Source: Callorhinchus milii (taxonomy: Eukaryota). Taken from it: a stretch of DNA of 64,000 bases. The position numbers were made by a program, and so were the translations under genes. The stretch spans positions 4,838,001 to 4,902,000 of the forward strand of contig NW_024704742.1 in NCBI RefSeq assembly GCF_018977255.1. The letters run 5' to 3'. A model generated the notes under the pieces. That model saw nothing but the letters and a program-made list of their open reading frames with translations. It was not told the DNA's origin and searched no databases. Shown in pieces: positions 3,537 to 58,695 of this stretch. Each line of letters opens with the position of its first letter. Position 1 is the stretch's first letter.

Positions 3537-7103
<3,567 letters not shown>

Positions 7104-13368: not shown

Positions 13369-13559
13369 CACGCCGTTGAGATTGAGACGTCTCAAAGCGC
13401 TTCACAGAATACACAGCCAAGTGGATTGTGGATTTTGTGGGCGAAAACAGGGAAGAGCAAGGACTCGCAGAGGTTAGTAATAAATAATAGCCCCTCGCAT
13501 TTGATACAGGTGCCTTATCAGGTCTTCAAGACAACAACAACAAGATTTCATTTGTAGAG

Positions 13560-14720
13560 CGCCTTTCACGCCGGGAGGACGTCCCGAGGCGCTGGACAGT
13601 TGGGTCAGGTTGGGTGGGGAAACGGTCAGGGTGAGGGGAGGGGAGCGAAGACGTTCTCGGAGCGCTCCACAGAACATAGCGTTGGGGCCAATCGACCGTA
13701 TCCTGCGGGCGGAGCGCGGGGGGAGCCAATCGCGCACGGCAGCGTCCCCGCAAACAGCTGCGGGTTGCGTCACCAAATTATCAGTGATATTTTTTTTGGG
13801 GGGGGGGGGTGGGGGGGGTGACCATGACCAAATTAAATGGATGCAGTGGTTGGTGGTTGATGTTGAGATGGAGTGGGGAGTGGTGGGGGGGGGGGGGGGG
13901 GGGGGAGCAGGCAGCTCTCTGTCGCCTCCCTTGCGGTGCGAAGTGTGTATTACACCCACACACACGCACGCATGCGCAGAGCGTGCGAGGTGAGGCCGAG
14001 TCACGTGGGTGCGGGCGGAGGCGTCACGTGCCTGCCGCCGCCGCGCATGCGCCGCAAAGGCAAAGGAGGGTTCAGCGCGCGCGGCGACCGTTGGGCGTCT
14101 TCTCGTCCCCGCGAGTGAGCGGAGGCGTCGCCGCCGCCGCCGCCCGACCGCCGGACCGCGGCCTGTCCTGTCCTGTCCTGGGCCTCACCGGCACCGGCGT
14201 CAGGTCAGTCACTCCCAGGTTGACGTGTACGTTTACCGGCTCTCTCTGTGACGGTCTCCAGGGGCCTGAGCCAAGCGGGTCACCGGGGGTGGGGTGGGGT
14301 GGGGGGGCTCCCGAGGGCCGACTGACCCCCGGGCCCCCGGGACTGGCACTGGTCAGCAGGACCCTGGAAGGGACAGACCAGTCACTTATAAGGGGCGTCG
14401 CTGCACTCGGCTCCCGGTAATCGCCCGCCCGCGGGTCACAGCCCTGAGCCGGAGCGGCGGCGGCGGCGGCGCTTTCCCGCCCGTCATTACCGACACAACC
14501 ACCGAACTGTCATCGGTGAAGCCGCCTCTCACAGCGGTGGGGGAGGGGGGAGGGGGGGGGGCGTCCCAAGGCGCTGCACGGTCAGGGATTAGGACCTGGG
14601 AAGAGGGGGTGGGGGAGGGGGTGACCCCGTTACCCCACCGTTAACCCACCGTTACAGCAGCAGCAGCAACAGGTCCAACGCGACGCAACGCGGCGGCAAC
14701 AAAAAAAAACGCCGCCCCTC
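13560..14720 (+). promoter_or_regulatory. CpG island, probable sialidase promoter and non-coding exon 1 (copy 1)
   Basis: CpG-dense; GTCACGTG at 14000 and 14023, GCGCATGCGC at 14043, donor CAG|GTCAGT at 14204. Confidence 0.7.
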
Positions 14721-14886
14721 ACATCATCATAATAATTCATAATTAATAATAATGATAATAATCCTCGCGTTTGATACGGCGCCTTATCGCGTCTTCTCGA
14801 CCTCTCAAAGCGCTTCGCAGTTTAGAGGGTCGAGTGAATTGACCGGATGTTTGGGGGCCAAACGCGGCAGCCGGTTGCGCGCGGCT

Positions 14887-15170
14887 ATTATATATATATT
14901 ATTATATATAGTATATATATTATATTATAGCATATCATAGCTATGATAATATATGTTGTATATAATACATATATACATTATATATAATATACATATTATA
15001 TCATAGCATATCATAGCTACGATGACATAATATATTGTATATAATACATACACATACATTATATATAATATATATGTTATGTTATAGCATGTTATAGCTA
15101 TGATAATATATATTGCATATAATATATATATATTATATATAATACATATTATATTATAGCATGTTATAGC
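14887..15170. repeat. AT-rich degenerate minisatellite (copy at about 45968-46255)
   Basis: Recurring TATAGCAT...ATAGCTA..GATAATATAT units. Confidence 0.8.
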
Positions 15171-15256
15171 TGCCAAAGTTATGTTGGTTGTCGGGTGGAA
15201 TTTAACGACAGACAGAGGGAGGGGGACGAGCTGGAGGGAGGGAGCACCGGAAGTTA

Positions 15257-15570
15257 TTATAATCCTTGGGTTTGATGGAGCGCCTTATCGCACATCTTCT
15301 GGACGTCTCCGAAGCGCTTCACAGGATATACTGTAACGTGAATTTTGTGGGGGAAACGCGGCAGCCAGTTGCACGCAGCAGTGTCCCACGGATAGTCGTG
15401 GATTGAGTGACCAAGTAATTGTTGTTGTTTTTTTGTGAAGGGATTATTACCTCCAGAAAAGCGATCCGCCAATCGAATAACAGCTGGGTTCCTGCTTACT
15501 GCTTGGTAAGTAGAGGTGTGTAGAGTAAGGCAAGTGCCCAACATTTCGCCCACGCCGGGAAGCAAACCCA
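15257..15570 (-). mobile_element. Deu-type SINE (copy at about 46341-46655)
   Basis: Reverse complement of SINE body and tail. Confidence 0.8.
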
Positions 15571-16090
15571 GCAACAAAACGGCAGAGAGCATATGTTCTC
15601 TCAGTGTGGTGATATGCTGTCAGAACTTGTCCAATGGAGGATACGGAAGCAAGAGCAACCAATAAAGTAGGGTGAATGTGGTGCTGAGCTTGGGACAATA
15701 ATACAAAGGAGCCATTGTGCATAAATAATTGTGAAAAAACAGCAGTCGTGTTTAAAGATCAGCCAGTTTTATCTCGTGCATGGGTATAAAAGATCTGGTA
15801 CAATGTGTATTTAGGTTTATTTCTCCCTCAACGTGTTTAAAATCAACAGTAAAATCATTGAGGGATCATCTGGAAAGTTAGATTCAAATAAAAGGGCAAC
15901 TTAGTAATGGCCGATATGATGCATCAGATGGCTTGTTCCATGCTGGAAATTTCCGTGTTTTCTACGTCCAAAATAAACTACAGCCATATAATGCTGTAGT
16001 TGGTGTGCCGTGTGGAATTCATCTTCAGTGTCTGTTTTCCTCTCTTCAGGCGCATTGATATCTATTTCATTTCAATTCTATTGCAGCGAG

Positions 16091-16294
16091 ATGGCATCTT
16101 CAAATGTTTCTAGTAAAACTATCCTATTCAAAAGGGAAAAAGAGTTTTGGTATCGTATTCCTTCCCTCCTCCACGTTCCAAACACAGATACCCTTTTGGC
16201 GTTTGCTGAGAAGAGACTGGGACCCAAAGACGAAAATGCTGATGTGTTAATGCTACGGAAGGGCACCTATAAGAAGCCTTTGAAGAATTTTGAG
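16091..16294 (+). CDS. Sialidase coding exon 1 (copy 1)
   Basis: Matches 47161-47364. Confidence 0.88.
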
Positions 16295-17214
16295 GTAATT
16301 GGGAACGGGGATACGGGGATGAGTCTTGTGATGGTTAAGAAGTTAGAGCACTTCATCAGGTGTCAAGTCAGCCTGACTCAGTTGGTAGCACTTTTGCCTC
16401 TGTTTTTTGTTAAAACCCCTAATTGTCCAGCATCCTGGGACATCTTTCTGATATGAAGGGAGCTATACAAGTGTAATTTGTTGTTGTCAAAAGGAGACTC
16501 TTCGCATAAGTCTATAAATTGTATAAACACTTAAGTCATACATTCCACCCGAGTCCTATTCAGTTTCCTATCAAAAACACTTTGATTTCTTTACACGATT
16601 CATATTAATCACCTCTTAACTCGTATTATTATATTATTATTATATTATTAATAACACCGCTCCCCTACCCTCCATTCCTCCTGCGTATACCAGAGGCCTT
16701 GAATCACAGGGAATCTCAGTCTTAACCTATGACCTGATGTGCACTTATCAGCTGCATTAAATTACGCATGAATTAGATTATTGATTAAATCAGATTTTCA
16801 ACGATTTCTAATAGTTTACCTGCAACTTCACGTAAGTCATATAAAATGTTATGCTCCTGACTGATATGACTTATGTGAATTATACTGTATCGGCAGAAAA
16901 TAAGAAAAGCTTTTTAATGCCCTATGCAAGATAGAGATCCATGTATGTCCATATAGGTTCTATATGTTCTCAAAAGTCAGAATGTCACTTATATTCAGCC
17001 TAGGGTATGAGGATGTAATTTTCTAACTGGGAAGTTCCAGGATGTATGATTCAGAACAAGATTGTGATTCAGGAAAATTAAATCAAATTTTTATATTACA
17101 CAAGTTTCCAAGCAATCAGGCACATGTCAAAAGAAATGAAACCCCACCTAGTTTAATGCAAATAAAAATGCTTTCAGTGTTCAACTCAGTTCACTGCTGA
17201 TGTATGGTCAGATA

Positions 17215-17540
17215 CCGAGAAACTATTTCCTCTGGTGGGGAATCCGGAACATGGGGCATAATCTTAAAATTAGAGCTCGGCCATTTAGGAGTGAAATCAG
17301 GAGGCAGTTTTTCATGGAAAGCATAGTGGAAATTTGGAACTCTCTTCCCCCCCCCCAAAAGGTTGTGTGTGCTGGATTCATTCCATTTTCAAGACTCAGG
17401 TGGATAGGTATTTATTAGGTCGGGATATCAAGGAATACGGGTCAAGGGGGGTAATTGGAGTTGAGGTACAAATCAACCATGATCTTATAGAATGGTGGAA
17501 CAGGCTCGAGGGGCTGAATGGCCTCCTCCTGTTTCTATGA
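17215..17540 (+). mobile_element. CR1-like LINE 3' end in the sialidase intron (copy at about 48285-48610)
   Basis: GHNLKIR..FRSEIRRQFF..VEIWNSLP remnant and GGGCTGAATGGCCTCCTCCTG tail. Confidence 0.75.
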
Positions 17541-17588
17541 TTTTATGTAATTGCTCATTTCTATTTAATTTTCTTTTACTTTTCACAG

Positions 17589-17723
17589 TGGGAAAATGTT
17601 ACAAGCGTTCAGGCTGCAAGACTGAAGGACCACAGATCCATGAATCCTTGCCCTGTTTACGACAAAGATACAAACACTATCTTCCTCCTCTTCATTGCTG
17701 TCTTTGGAAATACACCCGAGCAT
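17589..17723 (+). CDS. Sialidase coding exon 2 (copy 1), truncated by the assembly gap
   Basis: WENVTSVQAARLKDHRSMNPCPVYD...PEH then Ns; matches 48658-48792. Confidence 0.85.
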
Positions 17724-17753
17724 NNNNNNNNNNNNNNNNNNNNNNNNNNNNNN
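17724..17753. other. Assembly gap (30 N)
   Basis: Run of Ns. Confidence 1.
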
Positions 17754-23027: not shown

Positions 23028-38175
<15,148 letters not shown>

Positions 38176-41100
38176 TCGTTTGTCTCGCATTAACCTGTAT
38201 AGAGTGGTGATTTTTAATGATTTGCTGATTTGGAATTTTGTGCGGTATATGGAATGGTTTACATGGGTTTGATTTGTTGGACCATTCCCATTTTTCAATT
38301 TTCCTGTTCTTTCACATCTGCTTATGACCAAAATTTTGTCTCGGGCAAAGGTTGTTCGTACATAACTCAGGGTTAAACCTGTGGCCAGTCCTCCATGCAC
38401 CATTTTCTGTCAATTTCCTAACATCCATGGTATTAAGTATTTTTGACAGGCAACTTGTTTCTTTCACCCTCCACACGCACACACAGACACACGCTTGTAA
38501 TCTTGATACTTTCTCTGACTCAGAAGAGCAACACCATGTCACCAAAGGAATCATAATCATTCCATGGCTTGATGTAAGGGGTTGGCTTTCTAGAATAAAG
38601 GCGGATTATTTCTTGAGAGTGGGGTAGCTGTACCAGAGTGGTAGAGAATTGACAAAATGTGTTGCGTTGTTGTTAATCATGGAGTTGAAATCCATGGTTG
38701 CAGCATTATCGAGAGAACCAGAGCCGTAATGCTAAGAATCCCCTTAAATATGCACTCCCTGTATTGTAACCGGATGGTGCGAACTATACTATAAATAGAG
38801 TAAGGTGTGAGCAATCACAACTTTGAGCAAAAGCTTCCATTATTTGAACGAGAAATCGCATACCAGTATCGTGGTAAATTTGACCAGCATCTGAAATGAT
38901 TACATTTCCAGGCCTGAAATAATCATAAATAGTGTTTGCCTTGTCTTGCATTTGGCTTTAGATTATTTAGGTAACACTGAATGTGGAAATCTTTTAAAGC
39001 AAATTGACAGTATGTTCGGAGTTTAAAAGTGAAGCATTTATGATGTGTTACTTTTACTAGAGTGTTATAGTTTGTTGGACTGGGTGGACATATTTGACCT
39101 TTGTCTAGGTTGAAAAAGTTTAATGCAGTCATCTATCTACGTTCCGCATGAAATGATTGAATTGAGATCCGTTCTAAGAGAGCTTGTAATGACCCGGATT
39201 GTGCTTGGGATTCTCCAAGGTAATACAAGCAACCTGTATTGTAAAAAGTCTTAACTGAAATTTATTTTGGTATAGTTACATTTGGAGCGTGTTCAGTGAC
39301 TGTACACTTGTATAAGTATACAAGTGTCAATTAGCATGTGTTGTTATCATGTGACTCTGCTTCAAAATCCGAGGGCTGAGGTTTATGTAGTTGACTGAAT
39401 TTAGCCCAGTCTGATTTTAAATTCAATCCAGGGCTCAGATTTATCAGGCAGTTTTATTATGATATCAGCATTTTTTGTAAACTAATTAATCTTTTTTCCT
39501 ACTGTGCTGCCAGATTCTGCTATTCTACACAACTACTTGTAAACCATTCCCAGGCTGTGCTTCTATGCACTGAAACCCCTTCATTTACGTTATTTCCCAT
39601 CCAGTCTGTTCATAACATCCAAAACTGTCAGAATGCATCTCATTACAATTTCTCATCATTATTAATTTTCTTCATTTACTCTTGGTCTGAATTCCAACCA
39701 GAAAGTGTAATGTGATTTCTGCATTTTAATACCTTCAGTTTTCCTCCAATTTGTATTGGAGTTAGTTGGTTATAAACGAGTACATTTGATGTTAAGTGTG
39801 ACTATTGTGGTTAAATAAGTCACTACAATAATAATAATAAATAAGTCACTACAATGTTAATAATAATACAATAATAATAATAATTATTAGATGCTGTTCA
39901 GGCTTGCATTTGGACTGAAGGACTGACTGATTAGCATGTAGCTGAATACATATCACTTGAAATAGTTGGACTTCCAGACCATTTCAATTGTTCCTTTACA
40001 TTTCAATTTCCTAATGCTTGGATATATTTTATTATTGTTTGATTTGTTTACTAATAAAACTGCATTACTATATTTTGTAATGGTTCTAATAGTGAGATTT
40101 TTTAATTAAGTGTTTTGAAGGACTCATAATTACTGAATACTATTCAGGGTAGCTTTGCTAAAATGCTATTTGCATACATGTGTATGTGTGGAGAAGGAAT
40201 TTGTTTTGATAACAACTATGGCTTTAGATTTAGACAATGGTTCCATATTCAAGGATGCCAGGTAAATATTTCAGCATTGAAAATTAATTGGATTTCTTGT
40301 GGCAGTATGTTTTGGAGTTAGTTACCTGCGGATTATGATGTCTTTAGACTTGCCTTCTGTTTGTATGAGCCATGTGACATCAAGTTAATTGGATTGGGTA
40401 CTTGCCGAAATTAACCCGCAGTGCAACAACTTTCTGTGGATGTTTAAAAGGCAATGGACTGGTTCTTTCTTAACTCATCATGTTTCCTCAAATGCATGCT
40501 TTGCTGTTAAACACTAAATATAAAATGTAAGTAATCCTATGATTATCACATACCATTCTATAGTGTGGGCTATAAACACTTACAGATTCAGAATTTGGCT
40601 ACCTGTAACAGATGTTTTATAATTTCTGTGCAATCCACCTTAATAGCAAAATATTGGCTCTATTGAATGCTAGACACTGCTAGATTCAACTAAAGTATTG
40701 ATTCTATTTAACAGCTTTTTGGAGTTGTGTGCCTTCTGTGTATAGTTTTATATAGTCGTGTACTTCTGCTTGCCAGTAAAATATGATTATTTTTATTTCA
40801 TGGTTCGAACAGATAATGCTATCAGGATGAATATATAAATGGGTATGTGGTCATGGATTTTTTTAAGCCTCTTCTATAGTTAATTGAATTTGAACTATAA
40901 ATTAATCTTGTGTCAACTGTTCATAGAAACTCCTGTAAATTGGGTAATGTGTTGGACTTTACACAAAGGATGCAAAAGCAGAACATTGTTTGGTTCATTT
41001 TGAGCTGAAACCTTTACACATTTCTGGACCGAAAGATGCCATAAGGCTTCACCCAGCTAGATGTTTACCTGATTACAATACCTGTACTTGTGTAAGCAGA

Positions 41101-44100
41101 ACACTATACTGTCTTAAAAGCAAGTGTCAAGTTTAATCCAACAATACCTATCCTTTTCCAAGAGTTTTAAACTCTGTGCTGCGATGTTTTCGAGGAACCT
41201 AATGAGTAACTTAACACAATATGTGTGGGGAAAGGGGGGAGGAGTGGCAGTGTCCACGCTGTTTATGCCTGGGATGACCTGGATAACACTGGGATGAGCT
41301 GTATAACATTAGTAGTACAATGCTCAGCTACAGAGTAAAAATATTTATGGGGATGTTGTCCTACAAAGAATGAACTAAATTATATAGAAACTTCCTTTCA
41401 GCCCACCTTAAAATAGTAATAAATATGCAAAGTTACCTACCTTTATTTCAACAACTGCACATGGTTTAAAACACTTTGTAAGGGATTATTTTTGAATAAA
41501 CTGACTTAATAGATTGTTTCCCCTTTAATAAGGGGAACGTTGTATTTGCTGCTACTATTGCTAAGTGGAATATTATTCACTAACCCTACAAACTGCAACT
41601 GCTGAGAAAACCCACTATTACACACCTTTGCTATGCAGTTTCAACAGTAGTTGAACTAATTACTCAGGGTAGAAATTACCAAATATAAAGCGAAAAGAAA
41701 ACGGATCATGGCATCTGCACAATAAAATTTGCTTTGAAAATTGTATTTGTTTCACAATTAATGTACATATTTGTAGAACGTGTTTCTTAAAGCTTTAGTC
41801 CGAAAGTAGATACTGGAGGCGATACGTAATCAATAAGTAATGGGTACTTTTTTTAATCCTAGTTACACGCTTTCTTTAGAAGCTTATTTATTATTTAAGA
41901 CCTTCATCAATTTCAGAAGAGCAGCCGGATCAGGTGTGGGGATTGTCTGTTGTGTTAAATGTAGTGTTTTAGCTCTCTTTTGAGATTGAGTATCTGAGAC
42001 TTTAATGGAGCATTGAAATTATGGCTTTTTCAACAACAAATTTATAAACTGTTAATCAAAGTACATTATTAATATACATGTCTTAAATGGATCATAGAAT
42101 CTAAATTCTTTCAACTAGTTTTCGTTTTTGGACATAGAACCAAAAAGGTTTGAGATCTGTCCTCAACTAAATGTACCGTGGATTGTGGGGGAACAGTTCA
42201 AAATTTATATTATCCTTTCGTGTAACCAACTGGCAACTATTGACCTTAACTTCAGCCAAGCTTTATATGCCAGCAGAATATCGTAAAAATGTTTGCTTTC
42301 AAATGCCCTTTAAACCCCACACCTGTTAAATATTGACAGTACAAGGGTTTTGAGCTTAACTCTGGGTTTTAATAATATAACCAAGTGTTTTCAGTAATTG
42401 CACACAATTGAATTGTGAGAGACGCATGTGTATCTTTAGTGACTGGGTTATCCGAGGACCAAGAACGTACAGATATTCACTTGTCTGTCTTGTAAATACG
42501 GTCAGGTCATAGGTGCAGTTTTGGAGGAAATTTATATTTGTATTCCGGTTCAGATGCTGCAGTGAATTCTTGCCCTCCAGGGGATAAGATTCCATGAACA
42601 TCACAGTTTGCAATTCACAAAGTAAGTCAAATCTTAATTTGCAAATTTCTCTAGCATCAAGATAACCCCCTCCCCCCATTGCTATTGAGGATACAGTATT
42701 CAGAAATCGTCCTGTTTTGTAATATAATAATCCTTACATTTGATGTAGTGCCTTATGTTGTTGAGATTCTCATAGCGTTTCACAGGATATACTGTGAAGT
42801 GGTGGGACTGAGTATTTTGTGGGTGAATGCGTCAGCCAATTTGCCCACAGCAATGTACCACAAACAGCCATGGAGTGGGTGACCCAAATTTTTGAGTGAT
42901 TTGGTCAGGAGACCAGGAGAAACTTACTTAACAAATAGTGCCATGGGATCCTTAACATCCACCTGGACAGGCAGACGGAACCTCAGATGAGGCATGGAGG
43001 TGATGGGTTCATAGAGCCTAATGCGGGAATTTCAGAGATCCGGATGATCTGTAACAACAATAAGTTGCGTTTATATAGTGTCTTTCATGGCGGGAGTAGG
43101 TCCCAAGCCACTGGACAAGTCGAGGGTCACCCCCGAGCTGGAGGTTAGATTCAACTGGGATGGGGTGCAAGGGTGATAGGGCTGGGAAGGTCAAAAGGTC
43201 TTGAGACGGACCTTGAAGGAGGCAAGGGAAGGAGCACGGAAAGGGTCTCCGGGGTGGAGTTCTAGAGAGTTGGGAAGTCTAGAGAGCTGAATTGGCATAC
43301 TCTAGGGTGCACGTAATGAGTGTATGGATAAAGGGACTCGGTAGCTAAAGGGACAGGTGGTGAAGGTGGGAGAAAGATGAATGGGTCAGAGCACAGGTTT
43401 AAGGGGCAGTTGAGTGATGATCAAGACTAATAACATGGTGCCATGGGATCTTTAGCATACGCCTGAACAGTTAAATGGGACCTCAGTTTAAGGTCATAAA
43501 ATACACAATCCAAGGGATAGCAACGCCAACGATACAGTGCATACCCAGCAATGCGGTGTCACCTCCCACAGGGTGCTCCAACTGGCGGCCAGCGGGCCGA
43601 TTTCATCCCCCACCCTCCCTCCATTTCATCTGGCCCACCCTCTCCCTCCATAACCCGTAAATGTTGTTTCTGGAAGAGGAAGACACAAAAATATTAATTC
43701 TGTGCCCCGTGGAGTTTCTCCAATAGGGCATCTGTCCCTCAACAGCCTGAGGTTGGACCATCCTGGACGTGAATTCAAAAGTGCAGTCTTGGGATTTGAA
43801 CTCATAATCTTCCGGCTCAAGAGACCGGAGCGCTGCCGATTAAATGAGGCTAACTAAGTGTTTAATGTAGTGCCCTGAAATTCACGTAGTATAATGTCTT
43901 AACGCACTTCACAAAGGTGGGGTCCAATATTGAGCAAGGAAGAAGGGGGATCATAGGCATGGGGTTTTTGGTGGGATTTAAAGATGGATATGGAGAGGGG
44001 GTAAAGAACAAAATAATAATAACCATTGCATTCGATACAGCGCCTTATCGCGTCATTGAGACGTCTCAAAGAGGTAGGGTTTTGGTGAGATTTAGAGACC

Positions 44101-44649
44101 AGTACGAGGTGGGGCAGGGACCAATGAATAGTATGGTTAGAGCACTCGCTTTGCCAGTGAGAGACCTGGGTTCAATTCCAGGCAGAGGGCGAAACCTTGG
44201 GCAAGTTTCCTTACTCCACACAGAGCCTAATAATAATCCCTCCAAAACCAAAAACAATAATAAATTGGTCATTTTCAATCTACGACTGTTTGTGGGACAT
44301 TGCTGTGCGCAATTGGCTGCCGCGTTCGCCCACAAATATACAGTCAATTCACTTTACAGTGTGTTCTGTGAAGCGCTTTGGGACGTCCTCCCGACGTGAG
44401 AAGCGCTATATCAAATGCAAGGATTATTATTATCCTTGCATTTGATGTAGCGCCTTATCACGCCGTTGAGATTGAGACGTCTCAAAGCGCTTCACAGAAT
44501 ACACAGCCAAGTGGATTGTGGATTTTGTGGGCGAAAACAGGGAAGAGCAAGGACTCGCAGAGGTTAGTAATAAATAATAGCCCCTCGCATTTGATACAGG
44601 TGCCTTATCAGGTCTTCAAGACAACAACAACAAGATTTCATTTGTAGAG

Positions 44650-45800
44650 CGCCTTTCACGCCGGGAGGACGTCCCGAGGCGCTGGACAGTTGGGTCAGGT
44701 TGGGTGGGGAAACGGTCAGGGTGAGGGGAGGGGGGGGAGGGAGGGAGCGAAGACGTTCTCGGAGCGCTCCACAGAACATAGCGTTGGGGCGAAGCGACCG
44801 TATCTTGCGGGCGGAGCGCGGGGGGAGCCAATCGCGCACGGCAGCGTCCCCGCAAACAGCTGCGGGTTGCGTCACCAAATTATCGTGATATTTTTTTTTG
44901 GGGGGGGGTGGGGGGTGACCATGACCAAATTAAATGGATGCAGTGGTTGGTGGTTGGTGGTTGATGTTGAGATGAAGTGGGGAGTGGTGGTGGGGGGGGG
45001 GAGCAGGCAGCTCTCTGTCGCCTCCCTTGCGGTGCGAAGTGTGTATTACACCCACACACACGCACGCACGCGCAGAGCGTGCGAGGTGAGGCCGAGCGGG
45101 CGAGTCACGTGGGTGCGGGCGGAGGCGTCACGTGCCTGCCGCCGCCGCGCATGCGCCGCAAAGGCAAAGGAGGGTTCAGCGCGCGCGGCGACCGTTGGGC
45201 GTCTTCTCGTCCCCGCGAGTGAGCGGAGGCGTCGCCGCCGCCGCCGCCCGACCGCGGCCTGTCCTGTCCTGTGCCTCACCGGCACCGGCGTCAGGTCAGT
45301 GACTCCCAGGTTGACGTGTACGTTTACCGGCTCTCTCTGTGACGGTCTCCAGGGGCCTGAGCCAAGCGGGTCACCGGGGGTGGGGTGGGGGGGGCCTCCC
45401 GAGGGCCGACTGACCCCCGGGCCCCCGGGACTGGCACTGGTCAGCAGGACCCTGGAAGGGACAGACCAGTCACTTTTAAGGGGCGTCGCTGCACTCGGCT
45501 CCCGGTAATCGCCCGCCCGCGGGTCACAGCCCTGAGCCGGAGCGGCGGCGGCGGCGGCGCTTTCCCGCCCGTCATTACCGACACAACCACCGAACTGTCA
45601 TCGGTGAAGCCGCCTCTCACAGCGGTGGGGGAGGGGGGAGGGGGGGGGGCGTCCCAAGGCGCTGCACGGTCAGGGATTAGGACCTGGGAAGAGGGGGAGG
45701 GGGTGACCCCGTTACCCCACCGTTAACCCACCGTTACAGCAGCAGCAGCAACAGGTCCAACGCGACGCAACGCGGCGGCAACAAAAAAAAACGCCGCCCC
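44650..45800 (+). promoter_or_regulatory. CpG island, probable sialidase promoter and non-coding exon 1 (copy 2)
   Basis: GTCACGTG at 45104 and 45127, GCGCATGCGC at 45147, donor CAG|GTCAGT at 45295. Confidence 0.7.
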
Positions 45801-47160
45801 TCACATCATCATAATAATTCATAATTAATAATAATGATAATAATCCTCGCGTTTGATACGGCGCCTTATCGCGTCTTCTCGACCTCTCAAAGCGCTTCGC
45901 AGTTTAGAGGGTCGAGTGAATTGACCGGATGTTTGGGGGCCAAACGCGGCAGCCGGTTGCGCGCGGCTATTATATATATATTATTATATATAGTATATAT
46001 ATTATATTATAGCATATCATAGCTATAATATAATATGTTGTATATAATACATATATACATTATATATAATATACATATTATATTATAGCATATCATAGCT
46101 ACGATGACATAATATATTGTATATAATACATACACACATACATTATATATACTATATATGTTATGTTATAGCATGTTATAGCTATGATAATATATATTGT
46201 ATATAATATATATATATTATATATAATACATATTATATTATAGCATGTTATAGCTGCCAAAGTTATGTTGGTTGTCGGGTGGAATTTAACGACAGACAGA
46301 GGGAGGGGGACGAGCTGGAGGGAGGGAGCACCGGAAGTTATTATAATCCTTGGGTTTGATGGAGCGCCTTATCGCACATCTTCTAGACGTCTCCGAAGCG
46401 CTTCACAGGATATACTGTAACGTGAATTTTGTGGGGGAAACGCGGCAGCCAGTTGCACGCAGCAGTGTCCCACGGATAGTCGTGGATTGAGTGCCCAAGT
46501 AATTGTTGTTGTTGTTTTTTGAAGGGATTATTACCTCCAGAAAAGCGATCCGCCAATCGAATAACAGCCGGGTTCCTGCTTACTGCTTGGTAAGTAGAGG
46601 TGTGTAGAGTAAGGCAAGTGCCCAACATTTCGCCCACGCCGGGAAGCAAACCCAGCAACAAAACGGCAGAGAGCATATGTTCTCTCAGTGTGGTGATATG
46701 CTGTCAGAACTTGTCCAATGGAGGATACGGAAGCAAGAGCAACCAATAAAGTAGGGTGAATGTGGTGCTGAGCTTGGGACAATAATACAAAGGAGCCACA
46801 TAAATAATTGTGAAAAAACAGCAGTCGTGTTTAAAGATCAGCCAGTTTTATCTCGTGCATGGGTATAAAAGGTCTGGTACAATGTGTATTTAGGTTTATT
46901 TCTCCCTCAACGTGTTTAAAATCAACAGTAAAATCATTGAGGGATCATCTGGAAAGTTAGATTCAAATAAAAGGGCAACTTAGTAATGGCCGATATGATG
47001 CATCAGTTGGCTTGTTCCATGCTGGAAATTTCCGTGTTTTCTACGTCCAAAATAAACTACAGCCTGTAGTTGGTGTGCCGTGTGGAATTCATCTTCAGTG
47101 TCTGTTTTCCTCTCTTCAGGCGCATTGATATCTATTTCATTTCAATTCTATTGCAGCGAG

Positions 47161-49680
<2,520 letters not shown>

Positions 49681-50501
49681 TTCAAACTGAAGAAGAAAAT
49701 GTGTGATTGAGGTATTGTGAAATAAAGCAAACAGTGCAAATATTTTACAATGCTGATTATACCTTAATAATAATCCTTGCATTTGATATACCGGCTTATC
49801 ATGTCTTTGGGATGTCTCAAAGCACTTCACAGGATATACTGTAAAGTGAATTGACCATATTGACATTAAATTGCATAGAGGGGAAGCAGGAAAGGAAGAA
49901 AAATATTCTTCCGCAGGTCGTATGGATCTGGTAGGATCTAATTCTAAAGGAATGTTGATTGTAGAAACCATTGTAATACCTGTGTGTAATAAATTATTAT
50001 TTATGAGTAATCCACAGCATATAATTTTCTGGAATTGTTCAGTGATGTCAAACACCATTCTGCTGCATATGTTCTAAAATGGTCAATGGAAATATTTTGA
50101 AAGAAATGGCAAAAGCAATTCAATAAAGATAAAATACAGTAAATCCTGTGAAGTGCTGTGAAATGTCCTCCTGACATGAACGATGGAAGAATTATCGGTG
50201 TTAGTTGACTTGTTCTCCAGGTGCGGACTGTGAGGCAGCAACGACAACGACGTCAAATTACATTTGCATAACGCTTTTCACGCCCTCGTGAAAGGAAATT
50301 CGAGGATATTTATTGTCCTCCTGAGTGTGTCATTTAACTCAGGACATTTAAATTTAATTTAATTTCTGTCCGGCCCTCTGGTTGACTGTTAAGGGCCACT
50401 GTGAAATGCAGCGTCGATGAAATCCCACTCCGACCGGGTCTTAATAACCCACGAGAGCACCCAAAACCGACTGAAGGGCTGCAGAAGGACACTCGAGACT
50501 G

Positions 50502-50787
50502 AACCGCTCACCACCAGGGGGCGCTGTAACCGCTCACCACCAGGGGGCGCTGTAACCACTCACCACCAGGGGGCGCTATAACCTCTCACCACCAGGGGGC
50601 GCTGTAACCTCTCACCACCAGAGGGCGCTGTAGCCACTCACCACCAGGGGGCGCTGTAGCCACTCACCACCAGGGGGCGCTGTAGCCACTCACCACCAGG
50701 GGGCGCTGTAACCACTCACCACCAGAGGGCGCTGTAGCCACTCACCACCAGAGGGCGCTGTAGCCACTCACCACCAGAGGGCGCTGT
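50502..50787 (+). repeat. 26-bp minisatellite x11, each unit a CTCF consensus site
   Basis: CCACCAGRGGGCGCT starts at 50511, 50537, 50563, 50589, 50615, 50641, 50667, 50693, 50719, 50745, 50771. Confidence 0.95.
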
Positions 50788-50867
50788 CCGGCTGTCGGGT
50801 CATGTGACCCTCGGGCCTGGCGACTGGAAGTGGAGCCGCGGCCGTTGGTGAGTCAACAGAGACCAAT

Positions 50868-51045
50868 GGGGGGGACCGGGGGGCGGGGGGGGGCACAGGG
50901 ACCCGGGGGGGGGGGGGGACAGGGACCCGGGGGGGGGGAGGGGCACAGGCGGGGGGGGGGGGGACCAGGGGGGGGGGACCAGGGGAGGGGCACAGGGGAG
51001 GGGGAGGGGCACAGGGACCGGAGGGGCACAGGGGGGAGGGGGGGG
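50868..51045 (+). repeat. G-run tandem repeat (GGGGG-CACAGGGACC-like units)
   Basis: Many runs of 3 or more G with short linkers. Confidence 0.85.
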
Positions 51046-51226
51046 ACACGGCCTCGTGAGCAGTTGTTGTTGCTGTCGGTCCCTAATCGTCACAGTTCCG
51101 TCGGTCGGTCGGTTCCTAACGGAGCAACTGACTAAGGCGGAGCCGTTAGTTGTGGAGTATTAACTAAGTTTAACGGCGCGAATCCATCCGTATTCGTCTC
51201 CAGAACCAGTCACGACCGCACCGTGA

Positions 51227-51307
51227 GGCCGAGGTGGGGAGAGGGGCCCTGACGTGGGGCCGAGGTGGGGAGAGGGGCCCTGACGTGGGGCCGAGGTGGG
51301 GAGAGGG
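51227..51307 (+). repeat. 31-bp tandem repeat, about 2.6 copies
   Basis: GGCCGAGGTGGGGAGAGGGGCCCTGACGTGG repeated. Confidence 0.9.
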
Positions 51308-51459
51308 ACTCCAGTGGCCGCGGGTCACGCGGTGGCGGAAGCTTCGACGACACACGTCGCGGTGACAGCTCAGACACCGACACGGACGGACGGAAGGACT
51401 TTGCATCTTTGTAATCGCCGTTTGACATCGGAACGTCTCGGAAGCACTCGGCGGTCAGT

Positions 51460-51531
51460 GCCGAGCGGCGGGTCAGGGCCGAGCGGCGGGTCAGGGCCGA
51501 GCGGCGGGTCAGGGCCGAGCGGCGGGTCAGG
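51460..51531 (+). repeat. 18-bp tandem repeat x4
   Basis: GCCGAGCGGCGGGTCAGG repeated. Confidence 0.9.
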
Positions 51532-51809
51532 CAGCGTCTGCGCAGAGACTGAAATCCGTTGAGAGAGGTGTCGGAGGGGTCGGTGACCGTCCGGAAAGGG
51601 GTCGCGGAGGTGCGCGGCGCTCGTTGGGGCCGATACAAAGCGAATCCTCCTCCTCCTCCTCCTCCCCGTACCCGCGGGTACCGAGGCCGGTGCGGGGACC
51701 CGCGGGGCACGGAGTTCGGGGCGGCGTCTCCCGAGCGTTCCGCTGCTACTCACAGGGGGCGCTCGAAGGCGCCACCGGGAGGGACGCCGGAGCCGCTCTC
51801 GTCCCCGAT

Positions 51810-52060
51810 ATGGATTCGGGGGCGGGAGGCCCGTCCCCGGCGGCGGCGGCGGCGGCGCGGGCCGGAGGGGCCGGAGCGGCCGGAGCGGGCCGGAGGGGCC
51901 GGAGGGGCCGGAGCGGCGGCGCGGGCCGGAGGGGCCGGAGGGGCCGGAGGGGCGGCGCTAACGCCGGCGGTTGTGGCCAAGATCGAGAGGAGCCGACAGC
52001 GAGCGCTGCTGCTGAGGCGGGCGCGGGTGGCGAGCGGACCCCTCCCCGCCCTCCGCTCAG
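51810..52060 (+). CDS. XPA: XPA exon 1 (apparent frameshift near 51887; GC donor)
   Basis: MDSGAGG... in one frame and [23 protein letters not shown] in another; ends CAG|gcgagt. Confidence 0.75.
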
Positions 52061-55000
52061 GCGAGTACCGGAGCGTCGCGGAGAGGGGAGGGGGTGGGGA
52101 GGGGACGAAGGTGAATCAAAAGCTGCGGCGGATCCCAAAGCTCCTCACAGGAGAGTCACAGCAGAGCTCTCATCGAGGAGCTTCAATGGCATCGTTGCCC
52201 CCCCCCCACACCCCCCACACCCCCCACCCCCCCCCACCCCCCCACACCCCCCCCCCCCCCCACCCCCCCCCACACACCCCCACACCCCCCCCAGCCCCCC
52301 CCACCCCCCACACCCCCCACACCCCCCCAGCCCCCCCACCCCCACACCCCCCCCCCCCCCCCACCCCCCCCCAGCCCCCCCACACCCCCCCCCACACCCC
52401 CCCCCACACCCCCCACCCCCCCACACCCCCCCAGCCCCCCACACCCCCCACACCCCCCCCACACCCCCCCCCCCCCCCCACACCCCCCCCCACCCCCCCC
52501 ACCCCCCCACACCCCCCCCCCCAGCCCCCCCACACCCCCCCACCCCCCCAGCCCCCCCCACACCCCCCACACCCCCCCCCCCCCACCCCCCCACCCCCCC
52601 CCCCCACCCCCCCCACACCCCCCCCCCCCCCAGCCCCCCCAGCCCCCCCACACCCCCCCCCCAGCCCCCCCACACCCCCCCCCAGCCCCCCACACCCCCC
52701 CCCCCCCCCCCCACACCCCCGCGGGTTGTCCTGATTCCGATGACCGCCCAAAGCCTCTTCTGTGAAGGGTATGGAGTCCGAGGTTCGGCCGTGCAAACCC
52801 CTCACGGTGAGGTGTGAAGGTCCCCCACATCTCCATCGGCCCATTTGGATGAAGGTCCCAAAGACTGACCCCCTACTCCCAGTAGTAGAAACAAAAATAA
52901 ATCAAAACGTCTTCCAAGACAACGATAGCAGAGAAATCCTCCCCCTCGTCTTCGGTTAGTTTCACCGGGAAAGGGACTTTCAATGGCTGTGTATACATAT
53001 AATGCCACATTTTTCTTCCGCGCTGACAGGCGGCACTGGTGCACATCTTCTCCCCAAAGTGAAAGACACGGAGGGCGGATTCTTTCTGGAAGAAGAAGCG
53101 GAGGTGGTGCAGGAGGTGGATAAAGTGATCAGTGAGCCAGGTACCCTTCCATTCACTGAAGGCGTTTGCGGAGTCCTGTAGCTCAGTGGTTAGAGCACTC
53201 GCCTCGCGAGCGAGAGGACCCGCGTGAGATGGCCCGGGTCAGGGCAAAGCGTTGGGCAGGTTTCCTGACACACACGCACACACGCCTCTGTTTATCTAAC
53301 AGTAAGTCGGAACCAGGCTGTTAGTCGATTGGCGGATCGCTTTTCCGGGGGTAATAATCGCTTAAAAAAAAACCCGGTCACTCAATGTACGACTGTTTGT
53401 GGAACATTAATGTGCGCAATTGGCCGCCGCGTTTCGCCCACAAAATACACAGTCAATTTACTTCACAGTATATTCTGTAAAGCTGCTTTGAGACGTCTCG
53501 AAGACGTGATGAGGCGCTGTATGAAATGCAAGGATTATTATTGTAGTACCCGTAGTATGCGGCAGGACTCCTTCATAACTGACAGATGCATTATCGAAAG
53601 ATCTGTAGGTTTTTAGCAGACTTTACCTATCCGGCTAAAGGGAAATCTCATTCTACACATATTCTACACATCAGTGGGTAGGAATTTCACCCATCAGGAT
53701 GTATCTTGAACCCAGTTATTCTGTTTGGCTCAGAATCCTTCCCTGGTCATTTATATTTTAGAAGTCGTACTGGAAACAATTCCTTTTACAGACAGTGGTG
53801 TGAGTGAGTGTGAAGTGTACTGTCCAGAATGCCTTAGGTGCAGAATGATTTGGGTGGATCAGTTCACACTGTTAGATCGTATTATTTGATTTAACAGAAG
53901 TTGTGCTGTACAGGTCGCTAAACAGCATTTATATAGTACTAAATAATCCTGACATTTAGTATAGCAAAGGTCCCAAACCGCTTATCAGGATATACTGTAA
54001 AATGTAGTGACTTGTGTTTTGGATTAATCTCACTATATTAATGGAAATACTTTGGGAAATTTGGTGCTTTTGTCGGCAGAGTACAAGTGAAAAGGTTTCC
54101 TGAGCTATTGAACGTGATGTACAATTTACAACTTTATAACTGTGACATGCCGTCAGCCGAGGGATAATCTGTATAGCTTTCACTTCTGTACCTTGTCCTT
54201 CAAAATAGGGTTGGAATCAACGACTGCAGCTCACAGCTGACCAGCTCTCACACTAAAATGGTTAACCTCTGGGTCATTGGGTCACCACCGACACCATTCC
54301 CCGCACGTGTGCAGCACAGAGGAGTGACGTCGGGAGCGACTCGATGATCTGGAATTCAGCATTTTTTTTATTGGAGGGACCGGTCGGTCGGCTGTGTGCG
54401 TGGGAATTGAAAGCGTTGCTTCATTCTGGGTTGGGATTTTATGTCATAAAACATAAAATTCCAAGAGCTATGTTATAACGGGATTCCAATGTCTTACATA
54501 ACTATTATTAGTCACAGGTGTTGACTGGCTCAGTGCTGTTGCATTGGACCACTGAGTCATTGAGTTAATAATGTCATCTTTTTAATATGTTCTGTGGTTC
54601 TGTAGTGTTCCTGACTGTTCCTGTAGTGTGATTAAACATCTGGCTGAGTACACAAACTTCTGAGGGTATGCATTACAACCAGTCTCTATCCTGCCCAAGC
54701 TTAGGTAACTATTTAATCTGCTGTTAAGGGTGTTTCTAGTGAGGAAGAGTCTACTCCACATGAGTATTTGTCTTCCTTTCTTTCAGGACCTTTTCTGGAA
54801 TTCGATTATTTAATGTGCGAGGGATGTGACAAAGAATTCATGGAGTCCTTTCTCAGCAATCGCTTCAATCTGTCTGTGTGCGATGCCTGCAGGTACTGCC
54901 AGTCGTTTGGTCCCTTTCCTGTTTAAATGCAATGTTCTGTAGGTTTCAGGGACACGGTGCTCAATCCTAGATATTGTGGTGCTCTCAATGCCTGGGAAAA

Positions 55001-57657
55001 TCTGGCAGGAGGTTGAAGCAGATAATTTTGTTGGTAGAAATTGGATGTGTCTGTGTGGAAACTCTCTTGGATAATATGGCAGAAATGTGTCGTGCAGGAG
55101 AGACTTCAGATGGTGAGGACTCTATAGGACATTGTGGGAAAGACTAGATGCAGAATTGATTAGGGATACGGAGAGAAGGCGGAAATGTGAGATGAAAGAT
55201 AAGCCGTGAATAAACTGGTGGAACAGGCCATGTCCTCCTCCTGTCCTTATTGTCAACTATCCTTAAAAATGGAAGCAAGCATTTGTTTCTTATAATAATC
55301 CTTGCATTTGATATAGCGCCTTATCATATCTTCGAGACGTCTCAAAGTGCTTCACAGGATATAGAGTGTATTGACTGTATATTTTATGGGCGAAACGCGG
55401 CTGCCAATTGTGCACAGCAGCGTCCCACAAACAGTCATGGATTGAGTGGCCAAATCATTTTTTGATCCACAAACAGTCCCGACATTCGACTGATAACCGG
55501 GTTCCTACTTACTGCTGGGTAAACAGAGGCGTGTGGAGTAAGGAAACTTACCTAAGGTTTCACGCTGCCCGGGAATCAAACTCAGGTCCTCTCGCTCGTG
55601 AGGCGAGTGCTCTAACCACTGAGCTACAGGAATATAGATCACTGGCAGAAATATTTTTGTTTTTTTGGTGAGCCGAGTGTCTTGGCACATCAGCATGTTT
55701 CTGTCTAGGTACCCCCATGAATGGCTAACCAAAGGAGGAGATTTCCAATTTTTTTTCAGATGAATTAAAATAATCATTCAGCAAATGCTGCATTGTATAT
55801 AAAAACGTCTAACCTCCTGGCCTACGTTTTTCACTCTCTGGGCCCGTTGTTTTAGGTTTTAGCCGTTTCACCGATTGGATACCTTGTTAATTTCAGAGAT
55901 GCTGAAGGCAAACACAGGCTCATCACACGGACAGATGCAAAGAAGGAGTTTCTGCTGAAAGACTGTGACCTGGACAAGCGGGAACCTGTCCTGCAGTACA
56001 TGCTGAAGAAGAACCCGCACCATTCCCAGTGGGGAGACATGAAACTTTACCTGAGATGCCAGGTAAATGCCGGTATCTTTCAAAGTAATTCATTTGGTCC
56101 AACATCAAAGACAACAGCTTCACCTTTATATAGCATCTTTCACGCCACGAGGACGGTCCCAGCTCTCAAAACATGGTGACTGTGGGCAAATTTGAGTGAA
56201 TTGATCTGACCAATGAAGAGATTAACATGGGATCATGGAGCGTAGAGACTCATTACTGTAATCATGATTTTTATGATGGCCGGTTTAGATGAATGAGCCG
56301 AGGATGTGCACAACTTGACGTACCTTAATGTGTTTAATACCTTAATAACTCTAGAATAGCTTTTGATATTTCCTGCAGAGAGAGCCGCTTTCCCCAAGCC
56401 GTGAAATGGGAGGTGGTTGGATAACTGTTGCAAATAAACACCGATTATCCTCTCAATTGAAGGCAAAATATTTTTGGTTTTCACCCCGCGTCAGCGCCAG
56501 GGAGAACAACCGTGCGCAACAGCGGCAATGTTCGAGATCACGTCTCTGAGGTTTGCGTGCTTTTTATTTTTCCGTCTTTAGGCGGCGAAGCGTTCCCTGG
56601 AGGTGTGGGGCAGCGAGGAAGCTTTGGAAGAAGCCAAGGAAGCCCGTCAAGAAACTCGAGAGAAAATGAAGCATAAGAAATTTGACAAAAAAGTAAAAGG
56701 TGCGCGAGGGCGCCTGGCTGTGTCAGGGCCGCCTAACCAGCTGTGGCTCGTATGTGCCCACGTCTCTTTAACTGCCTGTTTGATTCAGGGGAAGATTTCT
56801 TTTTAAACTCCCAATTTTTTTTTCAGATGAATTAAAATAATCATTCAACGTTTTAGAATTTTTATCGCCGCTGTCCTGCCATTGCAGTGAGCTGGCAAGG
56901 TTCCATCGGTGTAAGTCGATCAGTACTTATTAAGCTTTAGAAAAGTCACAGCCCCTCAATAGCCATGACTCTATTCGGCGAGCGGCTGAGCCAAACGCAA
57001 AGGGCTTTGAAAGAGAATGAGGATTCCTGATGGGTGTTGTTAGCTGACCTCAGCCAAGGTAATATCAAACCAAAAAATCAGCTGTAAAACCAGCCAGGCT
57101 TTCTTCTCCTGATCACTATCCTTTATCTCCTGTACGGACATTTGATCAGCGCTGAACTTTGATAAGGTTGCACAAATGAATTACTTGCCAAATAAGTTGT
57201 AAGTCGAGACTTACAACTTGAATAATGATTTATTTGAGTGATGCCTGCTTATACTACAAGAGGAAAATGTCCAATGTGTTTGTGTGTGGGGGGCTGGGGG
57301 GAGTTTTAGAGTGCAGATTTTGATGTAGCTCTTTTGAAAATACTTGATGAACTATTTACCTGTCAGCAAAAAGTCAGCTGTCAATCAGTGATGTCCTAAG
57401 GACAAGATTCACTTGTCAAGAGCTGAAGTCTGTGATTGCTGTGTGTTACCTATCAAAAAGGGTCATCTTAAATGACTACTGTTTGTCGTCTTCCACTGTT
57501 CTCAGAGCTGCGGCGAGCAGTGAGGAGCAGCCTGTGGAAAAAGCAATCAGCTGCACATCAACACGAGTATGGACCAGAAGAAGCGGATGTTGAGGAGGAC
57601 ATGTACAAGAAGACCTGTGTAATATGTGGTCACCAGCTAAGCTACGAAAAAATGTGA
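51810..57657 (+). CDS. XPA: DNA repair protein XPA, six coding exons
   Basis: Exons 51810-52060, 53030-53140, 54787-54892, 55897-56062, 56582-56699, 57506-57657; [18 protein letters not shown]4 zinc finger CEGC...[19 protein letters not shown]-terminal [19 protein letters not shown] at 57728. Confidence 0.96.
52198..52720 (+). repeat. About 520-bp C-rich low-complexity tract in XPA intron 1
   Basis: C runs separated by A, ACA or AG. Confidence 0.95.
53030..53140 (+). CDS. XPA: XPA exon 2 ([15 protein letters not shown])
   Basis: gacag acceptor, CAG|gtaccc donor, 111 nt. Confidence 0.93.
53170..53542 (+). mobile_element. Full-length Deu-type SINE in XPA intron 2
   Basis: GGAGTCCTGTAGCTCAGTGGTTAGAGC head through the (TTA)n tail. 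Confidence 0.88.
54787..54892 (+). CDS. XPA: XPA exon 3 (zinc finger)
   Basis: [25 protein letters not shown], 106 nt. Confidence 0.95.
55293..55632 (-). mobile_element. Deu-type SINE in XPA intron 3
   Basis: Reverse complement, head to tail. Confidence 0.85.
55897..56062 (+). CDS. XPA: XPA exon 4
   Basis: [26 protein letters not shown]...[11 protein letters not shown], 166 nt. Confidence 0.95.
56582..56699 (+). CDS. XPA: XPA exon 5
   Basis: [18 protein letters not shown]...KKFDKKVK, 118 nt. Confidence 0.95.
56985..57135 (+). mobile_element. Possible LF-SINE-like ancient remnant
   Basis: GTTAGCTGACCTCAGCCA...CAGCCAGG...CTCCTGATCACTATCC resembles the recalled LF-SINE core. Confidence 0.3.
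57506..57657 (+). CDS. XPA: XPA exon 6
   Basis: [12 protein letters not shown]...HQHEYG...[13 protein letters not shown]. Confidence 0.95.
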
Positions 57658-57774: not shown

Positions 57775-58140
57775 GTGATCAGGGCTCTCTCTGCCGCCTT
57801 TGACACTGTCGACCATTCTAGCCTTCTCCACCACCTCTTTCTCTCGGCTGTCTCCCTGGTTGTGTCCTTGCCTGGTTCACATCTTACCTTTCCCACGGTC
57901 TCCACAAATGGCTTCACCTCCAGCCCCTGCACGTGTGGCGTTCCTCACCTCAGGGCTCTGTCCTTGGTCCTATCCTCTTCAACGTAAACATGCTTCCTCT
58001 TGGTGACATCATCCATGGACATGCGGTCAACGTCCACATGTACACGGATGACACCCAATTCTATCTCTCTGCCTCCACCCTCGATTCCAGGAACACTGAC
58101 GTCCTGGATGAGAGCGAATTCAAAATCCTCGTCCTCTTTC
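57775..58140 (+). mobile_element. Degenerate L2 reverse-transcriptase fragment
   Basis: [21 protein letters not shown] and [10 protein letters not shown] motifs in broken frames. Confidence 0.8.
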
Positions 58141-58348
58141 AAAGCCCTCCGTGCCCTATCTCTGTGACTCAGTGGATTATGGCCTGTTCCAGGTCTCCGA
58201 CCCCATCATCTACTGTCTTCTGGGGTAGTGCATTCCACACTGTCAAAACCCACCTTTTTGTAATTGCTGTTTGTGTCACCAGAGCGAGGAGGCAGATCCT
58301 TCAAACACATGTTTCAATGACATCCATCACACAATGTGAAACACAATT

Positions 58349-58695
58349 AATAATAATAATCCTTGCATTTGATATAGCTCCTTATCACGCTGTTGAGACA
58401 TCTCAAAGTGCTTCAAAGAATATACTGTAAAGTGAACTATTTTGTGGGCGAAACGTAGCAGCCATTTGCGCACAGCAGTTGATTGAGTGACCAAATTATT
58501 ATATAATTTTTAAGGGATTATTTACCCCGGAAAGCGATCCACCAATTGACTAAAAATCAGATTCCTACTTACTGCTCGGCAAACAGAGGTGTGTGGAGTA
58601 AGGAAACTTGCCTAAGGTTTCACCCTGCCCGGGAATCAAACGCAGGTCCTCTCGCTTGTGAGGCAAGTGCTCTAACTACTACGATACAGGATTCC
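58349..58695 (-). mobile_element. Deu-type SINE
   Basis: Reverse complement, head to tail. Confidence 0.85.

Follow-up and report, generated by a model that had tools for sequence, protein, structure and literature searches.

A tandem array of eleven co-oriented CTCF consensus motifs in the repeat-prone region between a sialidase gene and XPA

Between a sialidase gene and XPA lies a 26-bp minisatellite in which each of the eleven units carries a full consensus CTCF core in the same orientation. It was found in a 64-kb window, by which we mean the whole stretch of DNA analysed here (C1:4838001-4902000 of a 991.5-Mb assembly of cartilaginous-fish type). The unit occurs at this one locus of the genome, and its surroundings are exceptionally rich in other tandem repeats. 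The best reading of the array is that of a young, locus-specific, GC-rich minisatellite built by slippage from one promoter-proximal CTCF site. On balance, with confidence a little better than even, we regard this slippage-built expansion within the repeat-prone XPA island as a probable landing pad for CTCF, the copy number of which is not under selection.

Structure of the array and its genomic position

According to Tandem Repeats Finder (TRF), the minisatellite at 50502-50787 on the plus strand consists of 11.0 copies with 95% matches, 0% indels and a score of 474. The sequence CCACCAG[G/A]GGGCGCT is present on the plus strand of all eleven units, with G at the ambiguous position in seven of them and A in four, and the CpG of the core is kept in 11/11 units. 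Every unit matches both CCASYAGRKGGCRSY and the stricter CCACCAGRGGGCGC in one orientation. In the 64-kb window the IUPAC patterns CCASYAGRKGGCRSY, CCASCAGRGGGCGC and CCACCAGRGGGCGC each gave 11 forward and 0 reverse matches, all of them within the array. The initial annotation, which described eleven same-orientation consensus CTCF sites on a 26-bp unit, is thus borne out by TRF, the unit list and the pattern scan. The assignment of the motif to CTCF holds as well: the canonical motif has been given as TGGCCACCAGGGGGCGCTA (PMC10589630; bioRxiv 10.1101/024620), its central 15 letters recur without change as the core of the G-type unit, and the 19-mer around the core shares 16-17 of 19 letters with the canonical sequence, as judged by consensus letters. 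Since the exact degenerate motif has 1919 matches in 991.5 Mb, about 0.12 would be expected per 64 kb, and an array of eleven sites is far beyond chance. A literature search with the IUPAC string CCASYAGRKGGCRSY returned no paper. With its head-to-tail units at a single locus, the array is a minisatellite in the usual sense (units of ~10-100 bp). Four unit positions vary, namely 2 (A/G), 5 (G/A/T), 17 (G/A) and 25 (G/A); only position 17 falls within the core, and so the earlier statement that the sole core variation is G/A is literally true.

Weaker CTCF-like sites flank the array (Table 1). The further partial site noted previously near 51751 does exist but is weak (CACAGGGGGCGCT at 51751-63). 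It lies 49 bp upstream of the XPA ATG, within the transcribed 5' UTR, and RNA contigs are collinear across it; because it agrees in only 11 of 14 letters, it is not listed in the scan at up to 2 mismatches. That scan yielded 15 matches in the window against a chance expectation of 7.8, so that the site at 50371-50384, which is ~130 bp upstream of the array and divergent from its orientation, is weak evidence. There is no exact reverse-oriented motif in the 13 kb of the window downstream of the array, which says little at the scale of loops.

The neighbouring genes are identified by the BNR_2 exon of the sialidase and the XPA_C exon, both on the plus strand, in agreement with the position originally assigned to the array. 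The sialidase 3' UTR extends to ~50140, with an AATAAA at ~50123 and RNA-like contigs stopping at 50106-50140. Here RNA-like and DNA-like refer to the character of the public runs, as none of the listed runs with sequence of this locus is recorded as RNA. On the XPA side, spliced mRNA contigs of run X9 cover 51119-51333 and 51497-52062, which means that exon 1 extends at least ~690 nt upstream of the ATG at 51811. A 1142-nt contig of the same run leaves the genome at ~52063, and its continuation matches 53034-53055 exactly; it therefore represents a spliced mRNA with a GC-AG first XPA intron (GC donor CAG/GCGAGT at 52061, normal AG acceptor up to 53029). Exon 1 also contains an in-frame GGGCCGGAG repeat at 51838-51958. 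Taken together, the 3' UTR end and the XPA contigs leave ~0.4-0.9 kb from the poly(A) site of the sialidase to the XPA transcript, and the array lies within this gap: it starts ~360 bp past the sialidase poly(A) signal and ends at most ~330 bp before XPA mRNA sequence. The XPA ATG is 1024 bp downstream of the array, and the two genes share the same strand.

The XPA start site is taken to lie in the interval 50546-51119, and this is the basis for calling the array promoter-proximal. The RNA-like contigs have zero cover at 50546-50975, and 2.9-fold cover against 37-61-fold on either side, but this gap neither maps the XPA start nor shows a silent array, because a DNA-like contig also breaks at 51039. 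The unique segment immediately after the array is a candidate XPA core-promoter region, in which we take TCATGTGAC to be an E-box-like and GGAAGTG an ETS-like motif, together with a presumed CCAAT motif. A non-coding upstream exon ending in GGAAGTGGAGCCGCGGCCGTTG/GTGAGT (~50810-50848) and spliced to the AG at 51753 was considered and rejected: no contig with this joint was seen, and RNA-like contigs are collinear through 51754. The CpG observed/expected ratio is 0.4-0.6 across the array windows (0.43 in the array itself) as against 1.06-1.14 in windows spanning 51001-52000, which supports the earlier placement of the array at the 5' edge of the XPA CpG island.

Two other features of the window are worth recording. 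Downstream of the XPA_C exon there is a reverse-transcriptase (RVT_1) fragment at 57822-58430 on the plus strand (E 5.8e-07), probably a retroelement remnant in an XPA intron. In addition, a stretch of 18.5 kb is present twice, at 1-17723 and 30320-48792, with 98.6-99.7% identity. Its first copy ends at a 30-N assembly gap (17724-17753), and its second copy ends at 48792, within the last sialidase exon. Either most of the sialidase gene was duplicated in tandem recently, or the assembly contains a haplotype mis-join here.

Table 1. Features at the array locus, further CTCF-core minisatellites and examples of a dispersed CTCF-motif family. Positions with a C prefix refer to the assembly, all others to the window.
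Feature	Position	Strand	Basis
Last coding exon of upstream sialidase (BNR_2)	48610..49680	+	Pfam, E 2.3e-33
Weak CTCF-like site CAACCAGAGGGCCG, 2 mismatches	50371..50384	-	scan at up to 2 mismatches
Array, unit AACCACTCA-CCACCAG[G/A]GGGCGC-TGT or near variant	50502..50787	+	TRF, unit list, motif scan
CTCF-type core starts in array	50511, 50537, 50563, 50589, 50615, 50641, 50667, 50693, 50719, 50745, 50771	+	
Unique segment, candidate XPA core-promoter region	50788..50867	+	sequence reading
G-rich degenerate tandem block, periods 19-24	50868..51045	+ (XPA sense)	TRF
31-bp x 2.8 minisatellite, XPA 5' UTR	51222..51307	+	TRF
18-bp x 4.7 minisatellite, XPA 5' UTR	51449..51531	+	TRF
Partial CTCF-like site CTCACAGGGGGCGC, 11/14 core letters	51749..51762	+ (array orientation)	sequence reading
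XPA exon 1, coding part; ATG 51811	51811..52060	+	sequence and TRF; GC donor follows
C-rich 9-bp array, 523 bp	XPA intron 1		TRF
XPA exon 2; acceptor AG 53028-29, donor GT 53142	53030..53141	+	spliced contig
XPA_C exon	55856..56179	+	Pfam, E 1.8e-26
Further CTCF-core minisatellites	C14:4037565-4038429; C5:25255995-25256840; C14:430944-431422; C13:15009217-15009577		
Further CTCF-core minisatellites	C5:68775150-68775445; C31:118787-118902; C24:3894845-3894997 = C90:105419-105472 (one locus)		
Dispersed family L017-L030, examples	C1:4397874-4398708; C2:38588217-38589051		

Local repeat density and CTCF-motif arrays across the genome

The region into which the array is set is a repeat-prone one. 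Tandem repeats make up 1298 of the 2219 bp (58%) of 50502-52720, in seven TRF arrays, and arrays with periods of 22-52 bp occupy 16% of 50001-53000 compared with ~0.33% elsewhere, a background that comes from a 50-kb round-coordinate sample and the remaining 43 kb of the window (3 arrays in 93 kb). The XPA 5' UTR, exon 1 and intron 1 (50868-52720) form a nest of mutually unrelated tandem arrays. The 31-bp array is one unit shorter in contigs of runs X5 and X9 (joint from 51226 to 51258, 31 bp skipped), the 18-bp array is length-variable (joint from 51448 to 51502 in X10, 53 bp skipped), and the coding GGGCCGGAG x 10 repeat shows an in-frame length difference of 9 bp between public runs. Short-read contigs of public runs fragment into 51-56 nt pieces within the 26-bp array, and those of the DNA-like run and one RNA-like run both break in the G-rich block. 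A very abundant SINE-like repeat is also found nearby, at 49765-49856, with a summed contig depth of ~800,000 as against ~10 for unique DNA in run X1. It was seen near five CTCF arrays, but a tie between the two was rejected in view of ~20 further copies in the window alone.

The 26-bp unit is confined to the array. The core with 5 bp of flank has 11 matches in the 991.5 Mb, all of them in the array, and a search with the 26-mer at up to 3 mismatches likewise placed 11/11 genome matches there (control, 0). The unit is thus neither a dispersed satellite, an outcome named in the initial annotation as counting against its proposal, nor a sequence dispersed or arrayed at many loci genome-wide in the manner of transposon- or satellite-borne repeats. 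The motif, on the other hand, is over-represented in the genome (1919 matches versus 44 for a reversed control), which indirectly suggests that it is in use there.

To what extent are such arrays a wider phenomenon? A genome-wide search for two motifs in the same orientation at a distance of 8-38 bp gave 60 pairs (control, 0), invariably inside tandem arrays. They are found at nine places representing eight distinct loci, with periods of 26-49 bp and differing flanks. The seven further CTCF minisatellites have from 2 to ~32 units, and three of them lie beside apparent gene starts. Motifs are intact in 11/11, 28/29, 3/4, 5/7, 8/13, 11/12 and 4/4 units of individual arrays (8/13 being the C13 array), and in the array at C5:25.26 Mb the motif is present in 2 of ~32 units, the others lacking one G. 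One locus is present on both C24 and C90; over 10 kb the two copies share 99.86-99.94% identity, but their arrays differ in length by 80 bp (two 40-bp units). At four of the eight loci the array lies at the 5' end of a gene, with the gene start co-oriented and up to ~1 kb downstream. One sister array is followed after ~970 bp by an LSM14-like exon (Pfam E 5.8e-13), the single match among 68 open frames around three sister arrays. Beside the arrays at C14:4.04 Mb and C5:25.26 Mb we infer two putative gene starts, ~110 and ~60 bp downstream, from an ATG, an open frame, a GT donor and CpG-rich DNA.

The eight loci compare with ~6 expected from ~1850 single motif loci (approximately the 1919 instances minus 74 in arrays) and a minisatellite cover of 0.33%. 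As this background rests on 3 arrays in 93 kb, the expected number spans ~1-18, and the class is not enriched over chance seeding. For the strictest consensus the picture differs: three array loci are seen versus ~0.2 expected from ~58 single copies in 991.5 Mb, an excess that by-product seeding by itself explains only on the assumption that CpG islands prone to repeats are rich in such sites. Moreover, 5/8 arrays have the CCACCAGRGGGC consensus, compared with 6/99 single sites by a visual count of those listed.

Strictest-consensus sites also form two clusters, one of four sites in 42 kb arranged + + - - (C2:121786692-121828424) and one of three sites in 19 kb (C6:27045856-27064851). Separately, we noticed an old dispersed non-coding family of ~200-250 bp (L017-L030) with a central CCACCAGGTGGCAG CTCF-type motif and shared flanks. 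Some 60 bp downstream of the motif its members have a T-rich-loop hairpin, the stems of which differ yet stay complementary (CCCACC/GGTGGG, TCCGCC/GGCGGA, CTCCCA/TGGGAG). Rfam searches of these loci revealed no family for the element and two tRNA-type matches elsewhere in the loci. The family could be a transposon that spreads CTCF sites. By-eye comparison of its flanks with those of the array found no likeness, and a derivation of the array from this family was rejected.

Origin of the array and competing explanations

The array bears the marks of local duplication. Its unit types read AABCDEEEFGG along the array, and neighbours resemble each other more closely than after shuffling (p=0.004), a signature of local slippage or unequal exchange. 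Variation in copy number, envisaged in the initial annotation, is plausible, as the sister array on C24 and C90 is two units apart between assembly copies that are 99.9% identical, and neighbouring minisatellites differ among runs. Since the surroundings are so rich in repeats (58% of 50502-52720 versus a background of ~0.3%), the multiplicity of sites is best attributed to instability of the local repeats, as a by-product. In the scenario that we favour, a single CTCF site close to the promoter, together with 6-12 bp of flank, would have been duplicated head-to-tail, by replication slippage or unequal exchange, inside the exceptionally repeat-prone CpG-island 5' region of XPA. The resulting array would offer CTCF, and in the germ line also its paralogue CTCFL, a landing pad of high avidity and a single orientation, with the copy number itself being a by-product that is not under selection. 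The landing-pad role is expected because every unit still carries the full consensus.

How much function, if any, has to be invoked is a matter on which the data pull in different directions. It is possible, if doubtful, that the array is a neutral minisatellite, amplified at a CpG-island shore with an incidental CTCF-like word and now methylated or nucleosomal, with little or no CTCF and without effect on XPA or the sialidase. Such neutrality is consistent with the way the units vary. An earlier hint of core constraint, drawn from the location of the differences, did not withstand testing: among complete units, with substitutions only, 1/14 core and 3/12 flank columns are variable (p=0.24), and pooling over the eight arrays gives 12/112 and 18/160 (p=0.53), one array alone reaching p=0.02. 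Neither value for the array nor that for the pool is significant; in other words, core and flanks vary alike. The broken cores tolerated in the C5:25.26 Mb and C13 sister arrays, the five other unrelated tandem arrays within 2 kb and the agreement of the array count with random seeding (8 versus ~6) point the same way. However, a neutral word would hardly be expected to be a 15/15 match to the strongest consensus, of which there are only ~58 single copies in 991.5 Mb, or to keep all eleven core CpGs; nor does neutrality account for half of the arrays being at gene 5' ends, 4/4 of them co-oriented with the downstream gene.

Another reading, along the lines of the initial annotation, is that of a multi-site oriented insulator or loop anchor maintained by selection, in which copy number, or methylation of the CpG in each core, would adjust the strength. 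We think this unlikely. It would agree with the intact and co-oriented state of 11/11 sites, with its placement right between two genes that share a strand and are less than 1 kb from each other, with the excess of strictest-consensus arrays (three loci versus ~0.2), with the share of arrays carrying CCACCAGRGGGC (5/8 versus 6/99 single sites, by eye) and with the variable copy number of the C24/C90 sister array; DXPas34 provides a precedent for a functional promoter CTCF minisatellite (PMC3149622). Nonetheless, the cores are devoid of a purifying-selection signature, the array is young and homogeneous, as recent slippage predicts, its 26-bp spacing probably bars full occupancy, and the local repeat density makes amplification free of selection likely.

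Very improbable, in our estimation, is that the word serves some other process, be it as a recombination hotspot, as a target of another zinc-finger protein or as an instability-driving structure (G-quadruplex or hairpin), the likeness to CTCF being incidental. Minisatellites often mark recombination-active DNA, and a strongly G-rich block lies directly downstream. The folding of the array itself, however, argues against it: no tendency to a hairpin or cruciform was seen, its single strand folding worse than its shuffles (z = +4.79), 200/200 of which fold at least as well, and its G-runs, 21 nt apart, are too distant for a compact quadruplex. The exactness of the CTCF match over 15 letters is another point against an incidental likeness.

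It is tempting to speculate that strong CTCF sites in CpG-island promoters seed their own amplification, breakage or fork stalling at bound CTCF being one route. The XPA array, that of the LSM14-like gene and those at the two putative gene starts would then belong to a class of promoter-side, co-oriented minisatellites, in which copy number would serve as insulator dosage, determining the strength with which the promoter is tethered at the base of a loop and screened from its close upstream neighbour. We offer this extension as a long shot.

Predicted occupancy, related systems and significance

Under the slippage-built landing pad that we prefer, several properties of a bound array can be predicted. 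The array is probably able to bind CTCF. At the TAD boundaries of skate, a cartilaginous fish, the same CTCF motif is used and obeys an orientation code (PMC10115646); because this code operates in cartilaginous fish, the eleven consensus sites should bind CTCF if they are unmethylated. CTCF is known from skate and shark (PMC10115646; PMC7471279), and sharks also have CTCFL (PMC7471279). Given its place on the CpG-poor margin of the island (o/e 0.43), the array could be methylated; at position 5, a CpG of the flank, the units show G, A or T, as would fit decay of that CpG in the past. As for stoichiometry, a gap of 6 bp separates each 20-bp motif from the next and the 26-bp period amounts to 2.5 helical turns, whereas alternate units have a 52-bp spacing, close to 5 turns, which puts them on the same helical face with a 32-bp linker. 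The 6-bp linker is far shorter than any spacing with shown co-occupancy. With 20-bp motifs merely 6 bp apart, it is probable that only every second unit would be filled at once, giving five or six proteins at most. CTCF is oriented with its N-terminus toward the 3' side of the motif, and the motif 3' ends in the array point toward XPA; bound CTCF would consequently halt cohesin arriving from the XPA side. Halted cohesin may keep the XPA promoter at the base of a loop and shield it from the upstream gene, a looping or insulating effect that we infer from motif orientation and position.

Among known systems the closest analogue is DXPas34, the likeness being taken as one of analogy, as homology is not expected. 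DXPas34, at mouse Tsix's main promoter, is a CpG-containing minisatellite with monomers of ~30-34 bp and a CTCF site in each; its copy number and site content differ among species, and it is confined to rodents (PMC3149622). As in DXPas34, every monomer of the XPA array has a CTCF site, and the array adjoins a promoter (array end at 50787, XPA mRNA from 51119 or earlier). However, DXPas34 is rodent-specific, X-linked, located downstream of its own promoter and composed of weaker, more degenerate motifs, whereas the XPA array has 26-bp units with the full canonical core and lies upstream of an autosomal-type housekeeping repair gene. Function has been shown for DXPas34, while for the XPA array it is predicted from sequence. 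The mammalian 2xCTS are closely spaced CTCF motifs under one peak, enriched at active promoters and co-occupied by CTCF and CTCF/BORIS, and those with linkers of 30-40 bp give double footprints (PMC4562119). They usually comprise two motifs and are not tandem repeats, in contrast to the eleven motifs and 6-bp gaps of the XPA array; by the 30-40-bp spacing, adjacent units of the array fall short, but every second unit (32 bp) is within range. DXZ4/Dxz4 and Firre are macrosatellites whose tandem units each contribute a CTCF site, all pointing the same way, and the orientation of the array controls long-range contacts (PMC3491370; bioRxiv 10.1101/165340). Unlike the XPA array with its 26-bp unit, these are X-linked, have kilobase units and allele-specific binding and are hundreds of kb long. 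The coding VNTR of human HRNR holds more predicted CTCF motifs the longer the repeat, and it has been proposed, by association and in silico folding, to change local folding and the expression of neighbouring genes (PMC10234305); it is exonic and has weak motif matches, unlike the XPA array.

Transposons, such as the rodent SINE B2, have also expanded CTCF sites, a repeat process thereby multiplying the motif. The XPA array is similar in that its motifs were multiplied by a repeat process rather than arising singly, but differs in that its unit is not dispersed (11/11 genome matches in the array).

Either outcome at this locus would be informative. If CTCF does not bind, the array would mean that a CpG island prone to repeats can yield perfect motif arrays as a by-product, and it would caution against reading motif counts in VNTRs as function. 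If CTCF does bind, the array would offer a test case for the number of CTCF molecules that load on sites 26 bp apart, for whether the strength of a boundary or of promoter tethering scales with site number and for whether repeat instability and CTCF binding reinforce each other, in a lineage that shares the CTCF orientation code with mammals and whose regulatory DNA has been little studied.
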